Below are positions 1,714-37,033 of a stretch of 64,000 nucleotides of DNA, one piece after another. The notes beneath the pieces were generated by a model that worked only from the letters and a program-made list of their open reading frames with translations, did no database searches and was not told the origin of the DNA. The DNA lies in NCBI GenBank assembly GCA_030167865.1, contig JALAGF010004104.1, forward strand, positions 1 to 64,000. Reading direction: 5' to 3'. A program made the position numbers and the translations under genes. This DNA is from Craspedostauros australis (Eukaryota). Numbering within the stretch: position 1 is the first letter of the stretch; each line of letters starts with the position of its first letter.

Positions 1714-3249
1714 ATGTCAAATCGACAAGAGTCATCCTCCAACGCCACACAAACATCAGGAGCAGCGCCTACACCTGCTCCCGCGGCTTCAGAACCAAGA
1801 GATGAAAGAGGCGAAGCAACTACCGATCATGCTCCTCAACAACAACAGGGACGCAACCCTAACATCCATCAGTCTCTCCACCAATCCAGCACTGCTGACA
1901 TCGCATCCACGGCGCAGATGACTGCAACGACAACGACAACGACAACGGCCATCGCGGCATCAGGGATGTCACAGCCAGCAAGAACAGGATCCACCTCCAT
2001 TGCCGACTCAACAGGATCGGCCGACGACATGACGTACACGAGTAACATCGCAGCAGCGTGCGCAGCCACCAACGCCGAAATTCAGAACCAACCTGAGCTG
2101 TCTGAAGAGCTCCAGAAGGTGAGGAGATTGGAGATGAACCGGGTGAATGCACAGAGGAACAGGAACCGAAAGCGCATTCTGATCGACATGATACAAGCTG
2201 AGCAGCAGGAGCTCCTGATCGCCAACAGCGCCCTGAAACACGAAAATGAACAACTTCGGAATGCGATAAGGCAAGTCAAAGCACGGCAGCTGGAAGGAGG
2301 AATCGATTCTCATCCTCGGGCCCGGTCTCAGAATCAGATTCAGCCGCAAATCCAGCCTCAGCTTCAACCTCATCTCGAATCACACTCTCATGGGTCTGTC
2401 GATGCAGCTGCACATACAACGCAGACTCCACACACCACGGCACCTGCCACTGCGGGATTGCTCTCGAGCCAAATACTACCACGTCACCCCCAATTCGCGA
2501 CCAACATGGCACTACCTTCTGCTAGCCTGCTACCTCGATCTCAATTTCAGCCGCTGCAGCATATCCAACCTCGAACCCATCTCCAGGCGGCACAGCTACA
2601 AGCACCATCGCAACAGATACCTCAACAACCCACGCAACTAACACAATCGACACAACCTGAACATCTGCCACAGATACCACAGCAAGCATACGACGCCATC
2701 ATGGCACAGGCTGTCATGGTCAGCCAGCTACTTCTCCAACAGCAGATATTAGGCTTGGGTGGGGTACCGCCAACATTCGCGACAGCAACATCGTTGTTGC
2801 CAACAGCACTTTCAGGCACCACTGCTTCGATCCAAGGACAAGGGCAAGCGCAAGCGCAGCCGAGTACAAGCATGCTCCCCAGCAATACGGGCCATGTCTC
2901 AGTACAGCAGCAGCAGCAGCAGCCGCTACAAGAGGAGCAGTTGCAACCGCAGCCACAACAGCAGCCACACCAGCTGACTCACTTGGATCAAACCTTGCAA
3001 CCATCAGCCAATCCAGTCCAGCAAGACCAGCCTGAGTCCGCCCAGTACATCCAACAGCCGTTGACAGCGCAGCATGGATTCCAACACCACTATCACCATG
3101 GGCAGCAGCAGCAGCAGAAGAAGAATGCTCAACAACGAGATGAGGTTCAAGATGATCCCCCGCCCGCAACACAAAAGAAGGATACGCACGATGGGGCTCA
3201 CAGCAAGCCCAGAGAGGACAACCAGAGCACCACCCAAGCACCGACCTGA
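1714..3249 (+). CDS. bZIP transcription factor, Q-rich C-terminus (511 aa)
   Basis: Basic region RRLEMNRVNAQRNRNRKR followed by a heptad zipper (I..I..L..L..L); long Q/P-rich tail; single long ORF. Confidence 0.8.
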   Translation: MSNRQESSSNATQTSGAAPTPAPAASEPRDERGEATTDHAPQQQQGRNPNIHQSLHQSSTADIASTAQMTATTTTTTTAIAASGMSQPARTGSTSIADSTGSADDMTYTSNIAAACAATNAEIQNQPELSEELQKVRRLEMNRVNAQRNRNRKRILIDMIQAEQQELLIANSALKHENEQLRNAIRQVKARQLEGGIDSHPRARSQNQIQPQIQPQLQPHLESHSHGSVDAAAHTTQTPHTTAPATAGLLSSQILPRHPQFATNMALPSASLLPRSQFQPLQHIQPRTHLQAAQLQAPSQQIPQQPTQLTQSTQPEHLPQIPQQAYDAIMAQAVMVSQLLLQQQILGLGGVPPTFATATSLLPTALSGTTASIQGQGQAQAQPSTSMLPSNTGHVSVQQQQQQPLQEEQLQPQPQQQPHQLTHLDQTLQPSANPVQQDQPESAQYIQQPLTAQHGFQHHYHHGQQQQQKKNAQQRDEVQDDPPPATQKKDTHDGAHSKPREDNQSTTQAPT

Positions 3250-4849
3250 AGGGCTGGCTAGCTTCCTGGTTAACTGGCCGACTGTATCGGTGAGAAACAC
3301 TTGATTCCGTTACTTCGAGCGATCGATCATTCGTATCGTGCACAAACAAGTTGGCCACTTCGTGGATACTGTACAAATACTGCGCTGCGCTGCGCTGTAC
3401 TGCATTGTATGTCTTACTCATCCCAATTTCTTTCAGTCATCTTACTCTTGCGAGATGTACTACAACTACTACTCGTACCACACTATTATATAATACTATG
3501 CGCCGATTTTTGGCGTGTAACTTTCAACCGCGCTGATATGGACGCCAAGAAAGTTACACTTGCATCGTCACATTTTGCATCGGGAGATGTACATGCGCAG
3601 CCTGGCGGAACATATCGCATCCAATTTCGTTACGCTGCGCACAAGTCCGCGATGGTCTTACAGATTCGAAGTCCATCAACAACATCCGATACGCAGGTAA
3701 GTATTGTGTCATAGTGTAGAGGCGATCCTTGAGTGCCACGATGTTCTCACAAATGACTGGCACAAACAATTCCATCACCGTGCCGTGTTGTGCTGTGCTG
3801 TGCTGTGCTGTGCCATCGCCTTCGCTGCTGAAGTCGTTGCTGAGCTCGCTGATTTGCTCATCTACTTTTCTTATTCTCGTTCTCTCATCGTCTTCGCTCT
3901 ATGGGTTTGAATGTTGCTACGAGAATGCTCCGAACACACGCACAGGTGTCGCAACCATCTCTCTGTTCGAAATGGCATCGAATGCAACATGCCACTTTTG
4001 CTCTGCACGAAAAGTATTGCGTGAACTAGGCTATGCGACTCCTTGCTGGTACCGCGCGCATACCCTGTAATCCTCAAGCAACCGCGATCAGCACCTCCTG
4101 TACAGAGCCATTCTTGTTGCCAGCAAGGTTACTCGGTATTTCCGTCCTGGCGCCACAGGCCACATCAGGTCACAATTGAAACTTGTACCAGGCCAACCTA
4201 CCACGCGATCGTAGGAGCGCGCAGATGCCGGTTGCATCTGCGAATGGCGTGACCAGGGTCATTTCCGCAACTGGCAATCCAAGCAGTCCTGATGGTCCCA
4301 ACACCATCTACTGTTTCCTCAAACGACATCACCAACAAGGACAGAGTAGGAGATACATTCAAGCGTGTCCCAGATTGCGTGATCTCGACATCTCTGTACG
4401 GAATGGTGTGACATTCTCTGTGATAATTATTTACGGTGCAAGGAGAACACGAAGGTTCGCACGGTTCATGAGTTCGTTCACGACACCAAATTGTTGCTCA
4501 CAATTCTGGCAGCAAACACATCCATTCACAATACACCACAAAGCAGCAGCTCTCTCGCCGTCCTGGCTTGCCAGCAACATCAGAAACATTAGCATGAATA
4601 GGGCAGGACACTGCACTCTACTCCAGTACAAATATGAGTGCAATGCAGTACAATTCAATGCAATGCAATACAATACCATCTAATATATCACAAGTTGTGC
4701 GATGGCATCGTCTTCATTCTCGAGGCTGCGCTGCTCCCAATGTTGATGCCGGATGAATGATCCTGCTCGTACTCATGATTCGTCTGTCTTGATTTCAGCC
4801 AAGCAGGTACCCTGCGAGTATGCATCTCGCTCATTCTCTGCCTCCGTCT

Positions 4850-7110: not shown

Positions 7111-8055
7111 AATCAACGTAGTCGCATCAGTAGCGATGTTCGTGCTTCGTGCTATTGAGTTGCAATCTTAGATAAAAGTGTAAGTGTAAGTGTAGGTGTA
7201 GATATAGTTGCAATTGTAGCTGGAGGCGTACATGTCATCATGGCTGTGGAGGCGCGGTTGTAGAGTAGGTGACTCTCGGGACAGTTGGCGATGGCAGTAG
7301 CAGCGGCGTGTGCTCTAAGTTCTGTGCAAGTACGTGTGTGTCTGAGTGTGGTGAAGGAAGGCACAAAAACGGACAACACACACGATACACACGATACGAC
7401 ACGATACGACACGACCAAACGAACGAACGAACGAATTCAGCGTATCTGCATGTCTGTCTGTTCACCCGGCATTCAACTGGCTGACTGATTGTCCCCTTTC
7501 GATGCATAGTCGCAGCTCGCGCCCGTACCGATGCGTCCTACTCGACTCTACACGGAGATTGTCTGCGAGTATTCCTGACAGCAAACCGGAGACGAAATGG
7601 GAAGGGAAGAAGCGGCAGGAAGAGGAGAGGAGAGGCGAAGTGTGTACGCACCATAAGAATCCAACGTTACCAAGATCAGATAAGGATGGAGTAGGCGGTA
7701 CACGTCAATAGCCAAGACCGGACAAATCCAAGGAGAGCACGGCAAAAGACCAGAGAGAAAAAACACTGAAAGATCAGAACTGAGATTGCCCCGCTTCCCT
7801 ATACTCCACTCTACTCCACTCTACGCTGACCCCACTCTGCGAGTACTCAAGGACAAAACACATCGAACTACGGATCCACCCACAAACCCAACAGGTCTCA
7901 CAATATTCAAATCCGCAACAACCACAGAACACACACCGCATCTCAGCACTACTCGTACCAACACAGCAACACAGCAACACTTCCAGTAGCATTCACTCTC
8001 TTCTTCACCTCTGTTTCCGCTCACGCTCACGCTGACGATCTCGCTCTCGTTCAAG

Positions 8056-9230
8056 ATGATGATGACAACGAACCACACTCCCAGGGTCTTCCTCCCCAAC
8101 CTTGACATCGCCAAGCTTCAGAAGCAGCAGGCGATCTCCAATGCCAAGCGACAGGCCACTCGGCGCAAGAACAGGCACAACAAGACATTCCCATGCAAAC
8201 TCCATCGCATGCTCCGGGATGCCGCGGCAGACGGCAACGAGCACATCGTATCCTGGGTTGCCAACGGAAAAGCATTCAAGGTGCATAGCGTGGATGGATT
8301 CGTGGAACATATCATGCCTCGCTACTTCAGACAGACCAAGTTCAGAAGCTTCACCAGGCAGGTACGTACCATACGAGTAGGGTACTTCTATCAAGATGCC
8401 ATTTGTACCTGCCATCCCGGTGCTCTTTTGAGATTGTCCCAACGCAACAGCACGCTCCTGCGCCATCGATCGTGTGGCCTACCACGCTGGCAACCCTCTT
8501 ATACTCACACATCCCCTTCCCCTAATCCTTTCGTATCCTTTACCTTTTGCCCGTGTACCATTTACCCTTGATCTTTGTGCACAATCAACAGCTGCAGCTG
8601 TATGGCTTCATTAGAGAATGCAAAGCCACATTCCGAGGATCCTATCGTCATCCAAGCTTCTTGAGAGATCAGGAAGAGCTGCACGAACGCGTCGTCCGCC
8701 AGAAGAGCCAGACTAATTCCAAGGCGGAGGCAGCAACAGAACAACCAAGCACACAATCAAAGACGATCGCAACCGCAACCGCAACTGTAACCACCAAGCC
8801 ATACCTAGCATTGCCTATTGCCCAAGCCGAGAGAGAGGATTTGTGCGGAGGAAATGCATCAGTGGGCAGTAGGAACTGCTACCGTCGTGACGAATCCAGC
8901 TGCGACACAAGCAGGCGTAGCAGCTTCACAAGCCACTCAAGTAGAGACTCCAGTGTGGCGACAGACATGACGGCAAGTACAGCAGCGGGTACGACTTCTG
9001 CGGATGTGGTTGCCAGCCTCCATACCAGCATGAATGCGGACACTGCCACTAACGCGACAAATGGAGAATCTCCAGAACAGTTGTCGTTCCTTGGAAAGAG
9101 ATTCTTCCCCACTGACAACGGCGACGCGATGACCACTTCCAGCACCGTCCCTGCAGACATTGTTGTGTCATCTAGCCGTGTGGGAGATGAAGGATACACG
9201 AGCGATGTGCAGCAATGGCAAGAGGTGTAG
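8056..9230 (+). CDS. heat shock factor (HSF-type DNA-binding) transcription factor, copy 1; exons 8056-8361, 8592-9230 (~314 aa)
   Basis: FPCKLHRML..IVSW..NGKAFKVH..F..HIMPRYF.QTKFRSFTRQ|LQLYGF..Y.HPSFLRD; GT-AG intron 8362-8591 restores the RQLxLYGF motif. Confidence 0.93.
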
Positions 9231-9915
9231 CTTAGCCAAGAGGACACTCCTGCAGTCTCACAGGCGTATATCAGTTGATACCGGTTCACACCAGCGCATA
9301 CCGATGCATAAACAGTTCGCAACGCATGGTTCATTTGACACTGTTCCTACCTACCTATTTACCTACCCACCTCCCTCCCTGCCTACCTACCTACCTACCC
9401 GTGCCATTATACTCGTACACTCCCACCTATTACATAATATTAGAGAGCAGGGAAGTCTGCACCCATGCTCAAAGCAAACACAGCAGTACTCGACTCCCAT
9501 TGTCTTGCGCTGTTGGGAATAGATGCAGAGCGCTGCAGCTCCATGTACGACCTACCATAAAACATCGCCATTGCCATTGTCGCCCTCTGTGTTCGTCACA
9601 GCAGCTCTTTTTGCGCGATTCTCCCAAACTCGAACTCCGTGCAGGTTATGAGAAGAGAGCGAAGGATTCAAAGATGGCACGGGCCGCACGAAGTGGTGGA
9701 AGGCGAAGTCACCCAACCTAACATAACATAGACATGCAAACAACATGCACCACAACAAGCACCATAGCAATCAATGCACATCATAAGAGTAAGCACTGAT
9801 TACGTCCGCGCTTACAAATGGAGCACCACACTCTACGTATGCTTTGATTGATCGATTGATTGATCGATTGATTGCATCCCTGCTCGTTCTGCGCACTGCA
9901 TCGAGCTGGAATCCA

Positions 9916-11958
9916 TCACGATAATGCGGATGGGCCAGAGGATGGATCCATCTTCTGGGATCGAGCACGAGCACGAGCACGAGTACGAACGCCATCGCCA
10001 TCACTATCGCTCAAAGCGAGGAACAGCGCAACTCCAATCAAGGAGGCCAGGCCAGCAAATGCGCATTCTACGCCCTGAAGGGTGGGCATCGAATCGGCAG
10101 CCAGACCAAGAAGGAACGGAGCCACGATGTACGCGGCATCACCGGCCGCACGAGGCAGAGCAAGCGCCGTTGCTTCTGATCCCAGTGGCGCCATCTCTTG
10201 GGCAAAGGCCGTCAGAGCTGGTCCTTGCGCTGTTGCGCCCAAACTCCAGCCGAGGACCACCAATGTGAACGCGATGGCCGAAGATGTCAGCTGCCCACCC
10301 AGAAGCGGCGCATCAAGCACGAGGCTATTCGTGGTGTGCAGTATTGCGTCCACATCGCCATTCAATGCCAGCGGTATGGCCATCAATCCAACGCTGCTGA
10401 TGACTCCGCTGACAAGGGCGGTGAACCTGGCATCTGTGCGATCTGTCAACCAGCCGCCGAACGGCGCACCAAGCAACCCGCTCAACCCACACGCGGATAC
10501 CAGCGCGCCCGCACCAGCGGCTCCACCAGGAAGTACTGCTGTTGCCAGGATGGGAATGCTTGCTATCTTGGCGGCAAATCCGAACGTGGCACCAACCTGG
10601 CACAGCGCCAAGCCTTTCCATGAGTTATTCTGCAGCAGCTCCCCCCATCCCACCTCCTCTTCTTCTTCCAGCTGCTGCTGCTGCTGCTGCTGCTGCGATT
10701 GCTGCTGCGTTCTCTTCTTTTTCTGTTGCTGGGGTCCTGTCGCACTCTCAACGGCTTCCGGTGGAGCGATGAAGATGGACTCGATGAAAGAAGTCCGCTT
10801 GTTCGTTTCGGCGGCCATGTCCGTGGCCATGCCCATGTCTGTGTCGATACCTGCACCTCCACTGGCGCTGGCACTGGCGCTGCTCTTCTGCAACTCACCC
10901 TCCAGCTGCCGCGATGCATTAATCCCAGTCGTTTCCGGAAGAAAGCAATACATCAACAGCGCCACGATTGCCGCAGCACTCACGCAAAGAAACGAGGCCC
11001 GAGGGCCATACTGCTCCACCACCACCCCGCCAAAGGGCGCACCGATGGCAATCCCCAGTGCCACCACGGCCTGCTGAGCTGCCAAGATCCTGCCTCGAAT
11101 GTCCGGCACCCGTCCCGCCAGATCTGCAAGCATTCCGCGTTCGCCAGCTTCTGACACGCAGCGTCCCAATCCCAATCCCAGCCGGGCGACGACCAGCGGC
11201 GCGATCGATGTGGCCAGTGCTGTGCCGACATCTGAGGCTGCGATGACCGCCATGCCGATCAGCATGGCTGGCCTGCGCCCACGATCAGCGAAGGTGCCGC
11301 CGGACTTGGCAGCAAGCAGCAATGCCACGGCCGGGGCTGAGATGACGATTCCATTTGCCGCCGATGACAGGCCGATTTCCTTTCCGTACAGCGGGATGGA
11401 TGGGATGACTGCGCCAACTCCCAGGAACAAGATGAACTGCGACAGCAGCAAGATTGCGAGGGGCTGCATCACGTCTGTTGGGATCCCAAAGAGCATCGAT
11501 GAGGAGTCGCCGGTTGCGCCGCCGAGTATGTCCTCGTTTTCATCCTTGTCTCTACCGGTGTCGTTGATTGTGTGTGATCGTTTTGTGGCTGCCAGCGACG
11601 TGGGAGTGTTTTGTCTGCTCTGCTTGATTTCCCACTTGTGCCGATGCTGACGTTGCTGCAGGTGTGGATGTAGATGTGGAGCATTCCTTGCTATGAAGCC
11701 ACCGCCACACACGGCCTCAGATTGCATGGCGTGTGAATTTGACCGAAAGGAAGCCACATAGCTGGAAGATGCCAATGGACCTCTGCTCGATCGCTCCACA
11801 ACGAACGCGTCTGCAACGTGCACCAACAGCAGTGCTTGGAGAAGTAACAGAAGGATCAGCGCTGTCGCTTGCTTTGTTGTTGTCCATGTTGCTGTCCATG
11901 TTGCTGTCCATGTTGCTGTCCATTTTACTGCCAATGGTATCGCAGTTGTTCGTGTCAT
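9916..11958 (-). CDS. MFS transporter (MFS_1/DHA1-like) with signal + putative plastid transit peptide, copy 1
   Basis: Multiple TM helices, motif-A-like GTFADRGRRP and GGWLTDRTDAR; likely start MTRTT at 11958; hydrophobic signal ending ADA-FV. Confidence 0.9.
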   Translation of the reverse strand: MTRTTAIPLAVKWTATWTATWTATWTTTKQATALILLLLLQALLLVHVADAFVVERSSRGPLASSSYVASFRSNSHAMQSEAVCGGGFIARNAPHLHPHLQQRQHRHKWEIKQSRQNTPTSLAATKRSHTINDTGRDKDENEDILGGATGDSSSMLFGIPTDVMQPLAILLLSQFILFLGVGAVIPSIPLYGKEIGLSSAANGIVISAPAVALLLAAKSGGTFADRGRRPAMLIGMAVIAASDVGTALATSIAPLVVARLGLGLGRCVSEAGERGMLADLAGRVPDIRGRILAAQQAVVALGIAIGAPFGGVVVEQYGPRASFLCVSAAAIVALLMYCFLPETTGINASRQLEGELQKSSASASASGGAGIDTDMGMATDMAAETNKRTSFIESIFIAPPEAVESATGPQQQKKKRTQQQSQQQQQQQQLEEEEEVGWGELLQNNSWKGLALCQVGATFGFAAKIASIPILATAVLPGGAAGAGALVSACGLSGLLGAPFGGWLTDRTDARFTALVSGVISSVGLMAIPLALNGDVDAILHTTNSLVLDAPLLGGQLTSSAIAFTLVVLGWSLGATAQGPALTAFAQEMAPLGSEATALALPRAAGDAAYIVAPFLLGLAADSMPTLQGVECAFAGLASLIGVALFLALSDSDGDGVRTRARARARSQKMDPSSGPSALS

Positions 11959-30316: not shown

Positions 30317-30814
30317 CATGCTCTCTGCTTCGACGACGAGAATTTCGAGAGCCGAGACGACGCTGCCGAGTACAGACCGGCGCCATTCTCCTCAACCACA
30401 CAATATAACGCATGAATACAATCCCCCGCTATAACACCAACACCGAAGAAGCCCTCTCTGCGCTCCCACTATGCCAGAGTAGAGGCAGTCTGAGTGGAAT
30501 CGAGCATAGCAGAACAGAGCACTCTGCTCCGTCACATACGCGCGACATCAAGTGAAACGCCGGTTTCCACCGCAAAGATAGAGTTAGTAGTGAATAGACT
30601 ACTTCGATTCAACTTCCCTCATTTTTGTCCATCCGAAGAATGTCACCCATCAACGCTGCAGCTCGGAAGCTCCGCAAGAACTTCAGTGATGGTGGCGGTG
30701 GCTCCACGTGATGGGCATTGGCGGTGGCTTCGGCAGAGCGATCTGGGACATCACCATCCCATCACACAATTACGCAGTTACGCAGTTACGAAGACTCGAC
30801 TGGCAAGGTGGACG

Positions 30815-32407
30815 ATGGCGCTGTTGGACAGGCGAAGGCCACGAATGGGACACTTTCTGTGGCTTGTCGTGTTCGCGGTCGTCCGGAACCTGCCTTGCAC
30901 GACGGCATACAATGCGGATCTTCGATTCAAGGTCTCATCGAGCATCGCCAAGAGCGAGCGAAGGGCTTTGGAACGACAAACCGCGCGACGCGAGGTCTGC
31001 GATGGATGCCGACGCCCACCGGTGCAGTGCATGTGCGACGTCTTGCCAGAGGCGAAGATAAAGACCTCGACAGAAGTGCTTGTGCTGCAGCATCCAACTG
31101 AGTTTCGGCGCAAGACGGTCTCAACCGTGCCGTTGTTACCGCTGGTGCTGGACAAGGTCAACGTGTCTGTTGGATCCAAGTTCAACGACATTCGGAGAAT
31201 CCCAGCAATCGACCGCGCCATTCAGAATGGCACCCCCATGCTCCTGCTATTTCCTCACGAGGATGCCATCCAGCTGGACGTCCCTGAACAGCTTGCGGCA
31301 TTCCGACAGCGTGCGCAACAGCGTGCGCAACGGCATGGCGAAGATGATGATGATGATGATGACGATGCCAACCCATCACAGCAAGCCCAGCTGCAGAACC
31401 ATGATGCAAATCAACTGCTCATCTTGATCGATGGAACATGGACGCAAGCAGCTCGCATGGCACGCCATTCGCCAGAGTTGGTCGCGGCATGCCAAAAGGT
31501 GCAGTTCATTTCTGACCGGGAATCCATCTACAACACGATTCGGAAAGAACCGAAGGAGCACTTCCTCTCGACGCTGGAAGCATGTATGTATGCCATGAAG
31601 CTTCTCGAACCAGATTCCACAGCAGTGCAGGCGGCGTCCGACCACCTCATCTGCGCACTGCACAAGCTCGTCGATGGGAATGTCGTTTCTCAGCAGAACA
31701 GCCTGCCGCGGTTCGTCAATCGAGGTGAGAATGATGCCAAAACGCAACGGCGACGAGAGGTGGAAGACGCAGTATTTGGCAAAGAACAATCTGACGGCAC
31801 AGATGGCAATGCCATGCAATTGTCAGCATCAGATGATGACCGACGGAATGGACAGGGCGGTTCCATCCCGCATGACGCCGAGGTGATGCCAGCATTCGAT
31901 CCGATCGATCTTGGTGACGGTGCCACCTTGCGGCAACTTTCGGGTCTGGATGGAGATTGGGTGGACATGCAGTGGCCGTATCGATCCAAAAAGTCCAGAA
32001 AGATGGTGGAACAGCAGCTTCAGGATCCCTACAGTGCTTGCTGCAGCCTTGGGATTGAGGTTGGCGGTTCGTTGAAGGCCTGCATTTTGCGGTACAGGAA
32101 TGGCGCACTTGGCATGCTGCACGTGGACGACGACTACCGTCGACGCGGCTATGCGACGGCGTTGCTGAAGGAAGCGACCGAGATCATTGAATCCAGGGGG
32201 GAGGCCTGTGAGGCGTACATACGGCACGGGAATGATGCCTCTGAATCCTTGTTCCGAAGTCTGGGGTGGGTACGAGCAGACCCAAACATCAAAGGAAAGA
32301 GCGGCAATCGACGTTCCAAGTTGAAATGGATCAAATCAATCGCGACCACTGCTTCGGTTCACCAAGAAGAAGAGGGCGTCGAAGTACGGCAAACTTTCGG
32401 TCCATAG
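30815..32407 (+). CDS. DTW-domain tRNA aminocarboxypropyltransferase (TapT/DTWD2-like) fused to an FR47/GLYAT-like GNAT acyltransferase
   Basis: CDGCRRP..QCMC zinc knuckle, LQHPTE, LLLFP, LIDGTW.QA, IRKEP...LSTLEA (DTW); C-terminal GALGMLHVDDDYRRRGYATALL...GNDASESLFRSLGW (GNAT). Start at 30815 or 30845. Confidence 0.85.
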   Translation: MALLDRRRPRMGHFLWLVVFAVVRNLPCTTAYNADLRFKVSSSIAKSERRALERQTARREVCDGCRRPPVQCMCDVLPEAKIKTSTEVLVLQHPTEFRRKTVSTVPLLPLVLDKVNVSVGSKFNDIRRIPAIDRAIQNGTPMLLLFPHEDAIQLDVPEQLAAFRQRAQQRAQRHGEDDDDDDDDANPSQQAQLQNHDANQLLILIDGTWTQAARMARHSPELVAACQKVQFISDRESIYNTIRKEPKEHFLSTLEACMYAMKLLEPDSTAVQAASDHLICALHKLVDGNVVSQQNSLPRFVNRGENDAKTQRRREVEDAVFGKEQSDGTDGNAMQLSASDDDRRNGQGGSIPHDAEVMPAFDPIDLGDGATLRQLSGLDGDWVDMQWPYRSKKSRKMVEQQLQDPYSACCSLGIEVGGSLKACILRYRNGALGMLHVDDDYRRRGYATALLKEATEIIESRGEACEAYIRHGNDASESLFRSLGWVRADPNIKGKSGNRRSKLKWIKSIATTASVHQEEEGVEVRQTFGP

Positions 32408-36961: not shown

Positions 36962-37033
36962 GGTCGCCTCCGGGAATCGAACCCGGGACCTCCTGCACCC
37001 GAAGCAGGAATCATGCCTCTAGACCAAGGCGAC
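36962..37033 (-). tRNA. tRNA-Pro(CGG), intronless
   Basis: Acceptor stem GTCGCCT/AGGCGAC, anticodon arm CCTGC-TTCGGGT-GCAGG, T arm CCGGG-TTCGATT-CCCGG, discriminator C. Confidence 0.95.

Follow-up and report, generated by a model that had tools for sequence, protein, structure and literature searches.

A conserved diatom-type fusion of DTW and FR47-like GNAT domains as a candidate enzyme for the synthesis and N-acylation of acp3U in plastid tRNA

A stretch of 64,000 nucleotides from Craspedostauros australis (assembly GCA_030167865.1, contig JALAGF010004104.1, positions 1 to 64,000 of the forward strand; hereafter the window) contains a single plus-strand frame at 30815..32407 that joins a DTW domain to a C-terminal FR47-like GNAT domain in one 530-residue protein (P0001). 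This two-domain match is confirmed and lies far beyond chance. The gene, a nuclear one of diatom type, would encode a plastid-imported enzyme with two activities in tRNA modification. Its DTW domain would produce acp3U in plastid tRNA by moving the 3-amino-3-carboxypropyl (acp) group from S-adenosylmethionine (SAM) to the N3 atom of a uridine, and the FR47-like GNAT domain, held on a flexible linker and ending in a basic, RNA-friendly tail, would then N-acylate the free alpha-amino group of the acp side chain. An acyl-CoA, most simply acetyl-CoA, would serve as acyl donor, and the product would be the acetylated form (acacp3U) or a related acyl-acp3U. Such a two-step synthesis and N-acylation on plastid tRNA stands at about an even chance; for it we infer the plastid location, tRNA as the substrate of the GNAT domain, the acp amine as acceptor, the acyl donor, and a target at position 47 or 20a/20b. 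The wider proposal is more tentative and is held at somewhat below even confidence: that diatom plastid tRNAs carry N-acylated acp3U, whether acacp3U or a novel acyl form, which a bifunctional enzyme makes in a single pass, and that the acyltransferase half of this enzyme derives from a eukaryotic FR47-like protein and may be independent of the Vibrio enzyme AcpA.

The literature premises of an earlier sequence-only reading of this gene hold. TapT and DTWD1/2 are reported to make acp3U from SAM (PMC12630136, PMC6895100), and V. cholerae AcpA (VC0317) is reported to make acacp3U, deletion of vc0317 abolishing acacp3U and raising acp3U (10.1101/723049). Acetylated acp3U and AcpA are known from one bacterial genus only, although acp3U is widespread. 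A conserved fusion with matching split forms is the strongest argument that sequences by themselves can give for a second, unrelated-looking acyltransferase on acp3U, and it names a concrete protein and a group of organisms in which to look. If true, the proposal would put a hypermodification of the acylated acp3U kind on record for a eukaryote or organelle for the first time and would give the FR47-like GNAT family its first function or substrate class; it would also bring a hypermodified tRNA nucleoside to diatom plastids, on whose tRNA modifications the literature searched had nothing. Enzymes of both kinds have been described before. The literature searches found no publication on their conserved fusion, on its split counterparts, on its plastid-type leader or on an FR47-like origin of the acyltransferase.

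Gene structure and the two enzyme domains

The frame begins with ATG at 30815, ends with a stop codon at 32407 and is collinear with 28 fusion homologues in the family alignment (A1). It is one uninterrupted open reading frame (ORF), as the sequence-only reading had described it, and the motifs named there were all located in the translation: C62-x-x-C65...C72-x-C74, Q92-H-P-x-E96, D206-G-T-W209 and L251-S-T-L-E-A256 in the DTW domain, and LHVDDDYRRRGYA (residues 435-447) and N473-x-A-S-x-x-L-F-x-S-L-G-W485 in the GNAT domain. The hydrophobic leader is likewise present, with a core at F14-V23 and an end at T29-T30-A31/Y32, and the Pfam check returned DTW, FR47 and Acetyltransf_1, all above cut-off or significant. 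The reading frame is open 5' of 30815, and a second in-frame ATG at 30689 would give 572 residues; the start at 30815 is favoured because the homologues begin with the hydrophobic leader. The database model of the closest named homologue, Amphora P0002, also has about 30 residues ahead of its hydrophobic leader. The features are listed below.

30815..32407, plus strand: whole coding frame with leader, DTW domain, linker and GNAT domain; 530 residues plus stop
30689..30691, plus strand: alternative upstream ATG in the same frame, adding 42 residues (126 nt) ahead of the leader
30815..30907, plus strand: signal-peptide-like leader, residues 1-31, core F14-V23, end T-T-A/Y32 (small, then aromatic)
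30914..30982, plus strand: basic N-terminal helix, residues 34-56 (...IAKSERRALERQ...), from the AlphaFold2 (AF2) model and the family alignment
30989..31672, plus strand: DTW (TDD/SPOUT-like) aminocarboxypropyl-transferase domain, residues 59-286, by Pfam, hhalign and Foldseek
30998..31036, plus strand: four-cysteine zinc knuckle C62, C65, C72, C74, invariant in 28 of 28 fusions
31283..31411, plus strand: variable insert, residues 157-199, within the DTW domain, unalignable and length-variable among homologues
31430..31441, plus strand: catalytic D206-G-T-W209, invariant in the family alignment and aligned to TapT D137-G-T-W140
31673..31786, plus strand: helical extension, residues 287-324, after the DTW core; AF2 helices 269-295 and 303-321
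31787..31897, plus strand: disordered linker, residues 325-361; predicted local distance difference test (pLDDT) <50 at 325-354
31898..32335, plus strand: FR47-like GNAT acyl-CoA N-acyltransferase domain, residues 362-507, by Pfam, profile, AF2 and Foldseek
32138..32155, plus strand: GNAT motif A (acyl-CoA pyrophosphate loop), R442-R-R-G-Y-A447, R442 invariant in 28 of 28 sequences of the family alignment
32276..32335, plus strand: basic tail, residues 488-507 (...KGKSGNRRSKLKWIK), forming the last beta-strand (502-507) in the model

The DTW match (PF03942) scored 142.4 bits against a cut-off of 33.7 (E 1.9e-41) and covered residues 59-286 and profile positions 1-191 of 195. Positions invariant among the 28 aligned fusions were C62, C65, C72, C74, Q92, P94, E96, P147, D206-G-T-W209 and S252-T-L-E255. 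The family was aligned by hhalign with E. coli TapT (sequence from the K-12 record) at a probability of 96.8%, the zinc-knuckle cysteines falling on TapT C31, C34, C41 and C43, P147 on P111 (the proline of the F-P motif) and D206..W209 on D137..W140. According to PMC12630136, these four TapT cysteines bind zinc in the crystal, D137 and W140 are required for activity, and the P111 position is among the residues whose mutation cripples the enzyme; Arabidopsis DTWD2A, too, is reported to need the D and the W of this motif (PMC7704012). TapT was the first-ranked Foldseek match of the DTW half (9kz5_B, E 2.2e-06, template modelling score 0.70 on the target), and the AF2 pLDDT was mostly >90 in this domain. 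TapT was missed by phmmer with P0001 against the PDB and was found by the family profile and hhalign; the NCBIfam scan of P0001 returned no DTW-family match at E ≤ 1 and nothing informative. Since the fold, the zinc site, the F-P proline and D-G-T-W match those of TapT, SAM-dependent acp transfer is expected, and the DTW half looks catalytically intact.

E. coli TapT (YfiP/TuaA, acp3U47, PDB 9KYT/9KZ5) thus has the same DTW/SPOUT-like fold and the same motifs, at only 25% identity over 150 aligned columns; the diatom protein differs from TapT by its leader, its acidic insert, the helical extension and the fused GNAT domain. The pLDDT was 62-76 at residues 171-200 of the variable insert. The E-D8 acidic run (residues 176-184, 31340-31366) lies within this insert, the length and sequence of which differ in each homologue. 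The basic helix at residues 34-56 is kept in pennate-type relatives in the family alignment and could possibly be a tRNA-binding patch, by analogy with Patch1 described for TapT (PMC12630136). DTW-only relatives terminate just past the helical extension.

In the C-terminal half, FR47 (PF08445) matched residues 418-487 with 48.5 bits against a cut-off of 22.1 (E 8.6e-13), and Acetyltransf_1 scored 37.3 bits against 20.7 (E 3.9e-09). The GNAT motif A is defined as Q/R-x-x-G-x-G/A. Fourteen GNAT positions were invariant in the 28 aligned fusions: R373, L375, D379, W387, S394, G413, R442, L450, A454, N473, S476, F480, G484 and G497. The fold was predicted by AF2 with pLDDT >90, and the family profile matched 1sqh_A in the PDB at E 4.8e-15 (chain residues 167-291 of 312). 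In Foldseek, 1SQH came second, after TapT, and was followed for the GNAT half by Ard1, RimI, RimL and Naa50/60, with many GNATs at E of about 1e-06 to 1e-05. Among solved structures, Drosophila CG14615/FR47 (1SQH) is nearest to the diatom GNAT half. FR47-like proteins have two GNAT-like halves in tandem; the diatom protein has the C-terminal half only, and the DTW domain occupies the N-terminal side. The matches of the diatom GNAT domain include two fly proteins with FR47-like modules in tandem, three of them in P0145 (884 aa, Teleopsis dalmanni) and two in P0158 (607 aa, Condylostylus longicornis). The earlier suggestion of a GLYAT/FR47-type acyltransferase is supported for FR47 and not for GLYAT: the GLYAT-specific Pfam profiles (Gly_acyl_tr_N/C) gave no match on P0001 at E ≤ 1. 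Some more distant FR47-like relatives match Gly_acyl_tr_C weakly, and the Atlas name 'Glycine N-acyltransferase family' was taken as a lead only.

The GNAT half looks catalytically intact from its conserved residues, and a catalytically dead GNAT, left to bind RNA or sense acyl-CoA and so to modulate the DTW enzyme, is very improbable. The fourth-position glycine of motif A is replaced in the Skeletonema-type proteins P0051, P0056 and P0058, and PMC4275035 describes DTW fusions in which inactive enzyme domains serve to bind RNA; the 14 invariant positions, R442 in every aligned fusion, a conservation equal to that of the catalytic DTW domain and the confidently predicted fold argue against a dead domain. 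The AF2 model built on the family alignment had a mean pLDDT of 81.6 and a predicted template modelling score (pTM) of 0.56, with two well-folded domains and a disordered segment at 325-354. A domain-domain complex prediction (residues 36-325 with residues 355-515), in which the alignments were not used, reached a best score of 0.23 against a mark of 0.34 and is evidence neither way.

Spread of the fusion and its split forms

The first search yielded 88 relatives, the best of them at only 45% identity, and precomputed Pfam annotation assigned both DTW and FR47 to at least 69 of them. All named relatives are diatoms (Amphora, Entomoneis, Nitzschia, Corethron, Thalassiosira, Skeletonema and Discostella), to which a later search added Cylindrotheca and Thalassiosira exigua. 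With the family hidden Markov models, both domains were detected in 123 of the 300 proteins gathered. Several relatives are MMETSP transcripts labelled complete and containing both domains. From these taxa and transcripts, the fusion spans centric and pennate diatoms and is carried on one message in relatives, so that a single transcript and a shared architecture, on which the earlier proposal depended, were both recovered there. Mean pairwise identity reached 0.50 in the DTW domain and 0.48 in the GNAT domain, and fell to 0.28 in the helical extension and 0.11 in the linker. Judged from these comparisons, the fusion is old and under selection. The database names of the relatives are only 'tRNA-uridine aminocarboxypropyltransferase' or of the 'DTW.../GNAT...' kind.

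Some DTW-only relatives were traced to gene calling. P0066 and P0069 (381 aa) are artefacts, as their 90% clusters hold members of 544 and 546 aa and one transcript gives a pair of ORFs, 381 and 156 aa long; P0072, which stops just within the beginning of the GNAT domain, is probably an artefact as well. The explanation of all DTW-only relatives as such artefacts was rejected on genomic loci. A metagenome scan returned 46 loci, 23 of which (L082-L104) belong to the close family, six of these with both domains, and at five loci (L083, L086, L092, L098 and L099) at least 2.3 kb of downstream DNA contained no GNAT segment in any of the six frames. In a quick IQ-TREE analysis of 62 DTW domains rooted on seven bacterial ones, DTW-only genes were nested among the fusions at no fewer than three places: one DTW-only clade was sister to the centric-diatom fusions (support 100), P0262 lay among Cylindrotheca-type fusions (support 99), and a 12-member clade held two fusions (support 96). 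Forcing the 38 fusions into one clade made the tree 128.8 log-likelihood units worse and was rejected (approximately unbiased test, p-AU 1.8e-6), the constrained group having been named after an earlier FastTree tree was seen.

The GNAT segment (residues 355-530) was searched against 1.84 billion representatives and returned 291 proteins at E ≤ 0.001. A FastTree phylogeny of 209 GNAT domains placed 138 fusion-type rows in one clade (support 92), apart from 71 FR47-like rows. The latter are without a DTW domain, and those inspected have an N-terminal domain ahead of the GNAT. The fusion-type clade includes 16 GNAT-only members, of which nine start in the linker and are fragments, and seven (P0091, P0095, P0105, P0107, P0112, P0131 and P0172) are stand-alone proteins with a hydrophobic leader ending in, for example, ...SEA/FHS, ...TQA/FPL or ...CDG/YSS. 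The P0095 cluster has seven members, all of 189 aa, one of which was seen on 12 contigs. Because, over the records taken together, the halves are fused in most lineages and are separately targeted genes in others, the pattern is that of a Rosetta-stone fusion, as had been proposed from the single gene. Longer diatom or MMETSP FR47-like GNATs without DTW, namely P0179 (492 aa, Odontella aurita) and P0160/P0241, lie outside the fusion-type clade and are possible relatives of the gene that donated the GNAT domain.

Acyl acceptor and compartment

The fusion-type GNATs differ from their FR47-like relatives in charge. The mean net charge of the domain was +5.7 in the 138 fusion-type rows against -1.9 in the 71 FR47-like rows, and that of the last 28 residues was +6.4 against 0.0 (Mann-Whitney p 5e-23 on charge, in which independence is overstated as the rows are related). 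The diatom clade has a basic tail with the consensus K-x-G-T-G-K-R-R-A-K-R-K-W in the family alignment, and the FR47-like relatives do not; the algal ones inspected end ...ADADWVGF in its place. This basic GNAT surface fits an RNA-borne substrate. The same charge would suit a GNAT that acts on the same tRNA or another plastid RNA at a different acceptor, such as an aminoacyl moiety or another base, with the fusion sharing RNA binding only, as the tail and the net charge indicate a polyanion and no particular atom. This alternative is distinctly unlikely: the acp amine is the only nucleophile newly made by the DTW step, and the AcpA precedent fits it.

The structural neighbours RimI, Ard1 and Naa50/60 are alpha-amino acetyltransferases, which fits an amino-acid amine as acceptor. 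They also bear on the alternative that the GNAT acetylates plastid proteins (N-termini, lysines or the enzyme itself) or a small molecule, and that the fusion provides co-regulation or co-targeting. This is a rather improbable explanation, for which can be cited the ranking of Ard1, RimI, RimL and Naa50/60 directly after 1SQH, weak sequence matches to Naa30 and RimI, the dispensability of the GNAT in several lineages, and the E. coli tapT gene adjoining (31 bp) patZ, which encodes a protein lysine acetyltransferase. It is countered by the retention of the fusion in centric and pennate diatoms with equally conserved halves, by a family-specific basic tail that the FR47-like relatives lack, and by the stand-alone GNATs, which keep both the tail and the leader. 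Even if the GNAT acts on proteins, the fusion would be a still unexplained and strongly conserved link between tRNA modification and acetylation.

Action on organellar tRNA had been suggested as a possibility. The leader proved widespread, and by a crude heuristic it looks to be of plastid type; the plastid location would follow by extension. In diatoms, proteins of the plastid stroma carry a bipartite presequence of the 'ASAFAP' type, in which F, W, Y or L comes after the signal peptide. Of the 123 two-domain proteins, 98 were scored (M start, complete DTW start and at least 35 residues before the zinc knuckle) and 25 were dropped. By our own crude heuristic, the N-terminal hydropathy maximum over 11 residues was at least 1.8 in 86 of the 98 (2.52 in P0001), and a small residue followed by F, Y or W after the hydrophobic core was found in 62 of the 98, Leu at +1 not being counted. 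Near-canonical sites in the family include ...CNA/FSA, ...TSF/SA and ...TQA/FPL. By this crude measure, the leaders look to be of diatom plastid type across the family, and acp3U47 is reported to occur in plant plastid tRNAs (PMC6895100). A protein that is not plastidial but resides in the endoplasmic reticulum or secretory route, or in the cytosol with another start codon, and acts on cytosolic or other RNAs, is fairly unlikely. The second in-frame ATG at 30689 and the 36 of 98 leaders without a small-to-F/Y/W site by the crude heuristic would allow it, whereas the hydrophobic leader in 86 of 98 proteins, with many near-canonical sites, the plastid as what would be, in diatoms, the one compartment with tRNA that a signal peptide leads to, and the existence of a leaderless Amphora DTW paralogue (P0087) speak for the plastid. 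P0087 (321 aa, Amphora coffeaeformis) matches Pfam DTW only, occurs alongside the fusion P0002 and is probably a cytosolic enzyme.

Several observations weigh against acp3U synthesis followed by N-acylation in the plastid. Repeated loss or separation of the GNAT means that the DTW enzyme works with no GNAT covalently tethered to it. The structural neighbours of the GNAT domain acetylate protein N-termini and so fit a protein substrate equally well, and the nearest relatives outside the fusions are FR47-like proteins, all uncharacterised, from marine eukaryotes, an Odontella diatom and flies. With a pTM of 0.56, the mutual orientation of the two domains and active sites is not fixed by the model. 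The start codon, for which the homologues favour 30815, was read from sequence, and the leader type from a crude heuristic. Around the 80 nearest bacterial DTW loci, a search of 3 kb detected no GNAT-like frame at E ≤ 1e-2 and no convincing one at E ≤ 50. By titles and abstracts, the papers listed by the literature search for acacp3U concern bacteria, with no eukaryote on record, and that for an aminocarboxypropyltransferase with a GNAT returned only unrelated matches; no link between acp3U and diatoms was found in the literature search. A search on 'FR47-like' likewise gave no title or abstract on the function of the family.

Subfamily, origin and comparison with known systems

The DTW half was compared with two DTW genes of one Pseudomonas genome (L128 and L129) and with E. 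coli TapT.

Pseudomonas L128, TapT orthologue: 231 bits against E. coli TapT, 33 bits against the diatom DTW profile
Pseudomonas L129, second paralogue: 78 bits against E. coli TapT, 88 bits against the diatom DTW profile
E. coli TapT: 33.6 bits against the diatom DTW profile

Orthology of the DTW half to TapT was rejected on these scores, the second Pseudomonas paralogue reaching 88 bits against 33 for the TapT type. The diatom DTW domain would thus be nearer to the second bacterial paralogue group than to TapT proper. According to Takakura et al. (PMC6895100), Pseudomonas has TapT (PA3606) and a VC1980-like paralogue (PA1424), and the PA1424/VC1980-like group is speculated to make acp3U20b. 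Since the DTW half is nearer to the non-TapT paralogue, the target position is not fixed to 47 and may be 47 or 20a/20b; position 20b is one of those reported as acetylated in Vibrio (10.1101/723049).

The best 80 bacterial loci showed 27-36% identity and were by title mostly Bdellovibrionota/Oligoflexia, Myxococcota, Pseudomonas and other Proteobacteria, with a few Spirochaetes or Planctomycetota. A cyanobacterial origin of the DTW half was rejected, as none of these 80 loci was titled as a cyanobacterium. By language-model features, the Atlas clusters nearest to the DTW part were of green-lineage DTW proteins, with scores of 0.93-0.94 that give no more than a lead. Searches with the DTW part (10 matches) and with a DTW-only profile (A2, best 120 of 218) returned almost only the same family, and no named plant or animal DTW reference was among these matches listed. 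For the GNAT half, the profile (A5) found six weak loci in bacteria, none titled Vibrio, and no close bacterial relative.

In V. cholerae, AcpA acts after the DTW paralogues VC1533/VC0131/VC1980, with acacp3U at positions 20b and 46 (10.1101/723049, PMC6895100). The likeness to the diatom protein is in the proposed two-step logic; the Vibrio system consists of two separate genes, whereas the diatom one is fused, eukaryotic and leader-bearing. No acetylated acp3U was found in E. coli according to 10.1101/723049, and no clear AcpA homologue was found in P. aeruginosa according to the Pseudomonas authors. The plant proteins AT1G03687 (TapT-like, predicted chloroplast) and AT5G54880 (DTWD2B) are likewise DTW enzymes, organelle-related or non-canonical ones, of plastid-bearing eukaryotes (PMC6895100); unlike the diatom fusion, they are not reported to have a GNAT.

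Some further loci were recorded. In E. coli K-12 (NC_000913.3 2719223-2722613; L081:7224-7922 and 7954-10614), tapT is situated upstream of patZ on the same strand, with 31 bp between them. In Myxococcus/Corallococcus loci (L010, L011, L014-L016 and others), the DTW match extends to query residue 335, past the Pfam domain, and reaches into the helical extension that is also present in the eukaryotic clade. A Bdellovibrionales metagenome-assembled genome has a stop-free frame of about 688 aa (L001:2811-4874) with a DTW match at 3001-3534; the frame runs 1.3 kb beyond the match and may be another bacterial DTW fusion. The window itself is gene-dense with long uninterrupted frames, and its sole tRNA gene is tRNA-Pro(CGG) at 36962-37033 on the minus strand.

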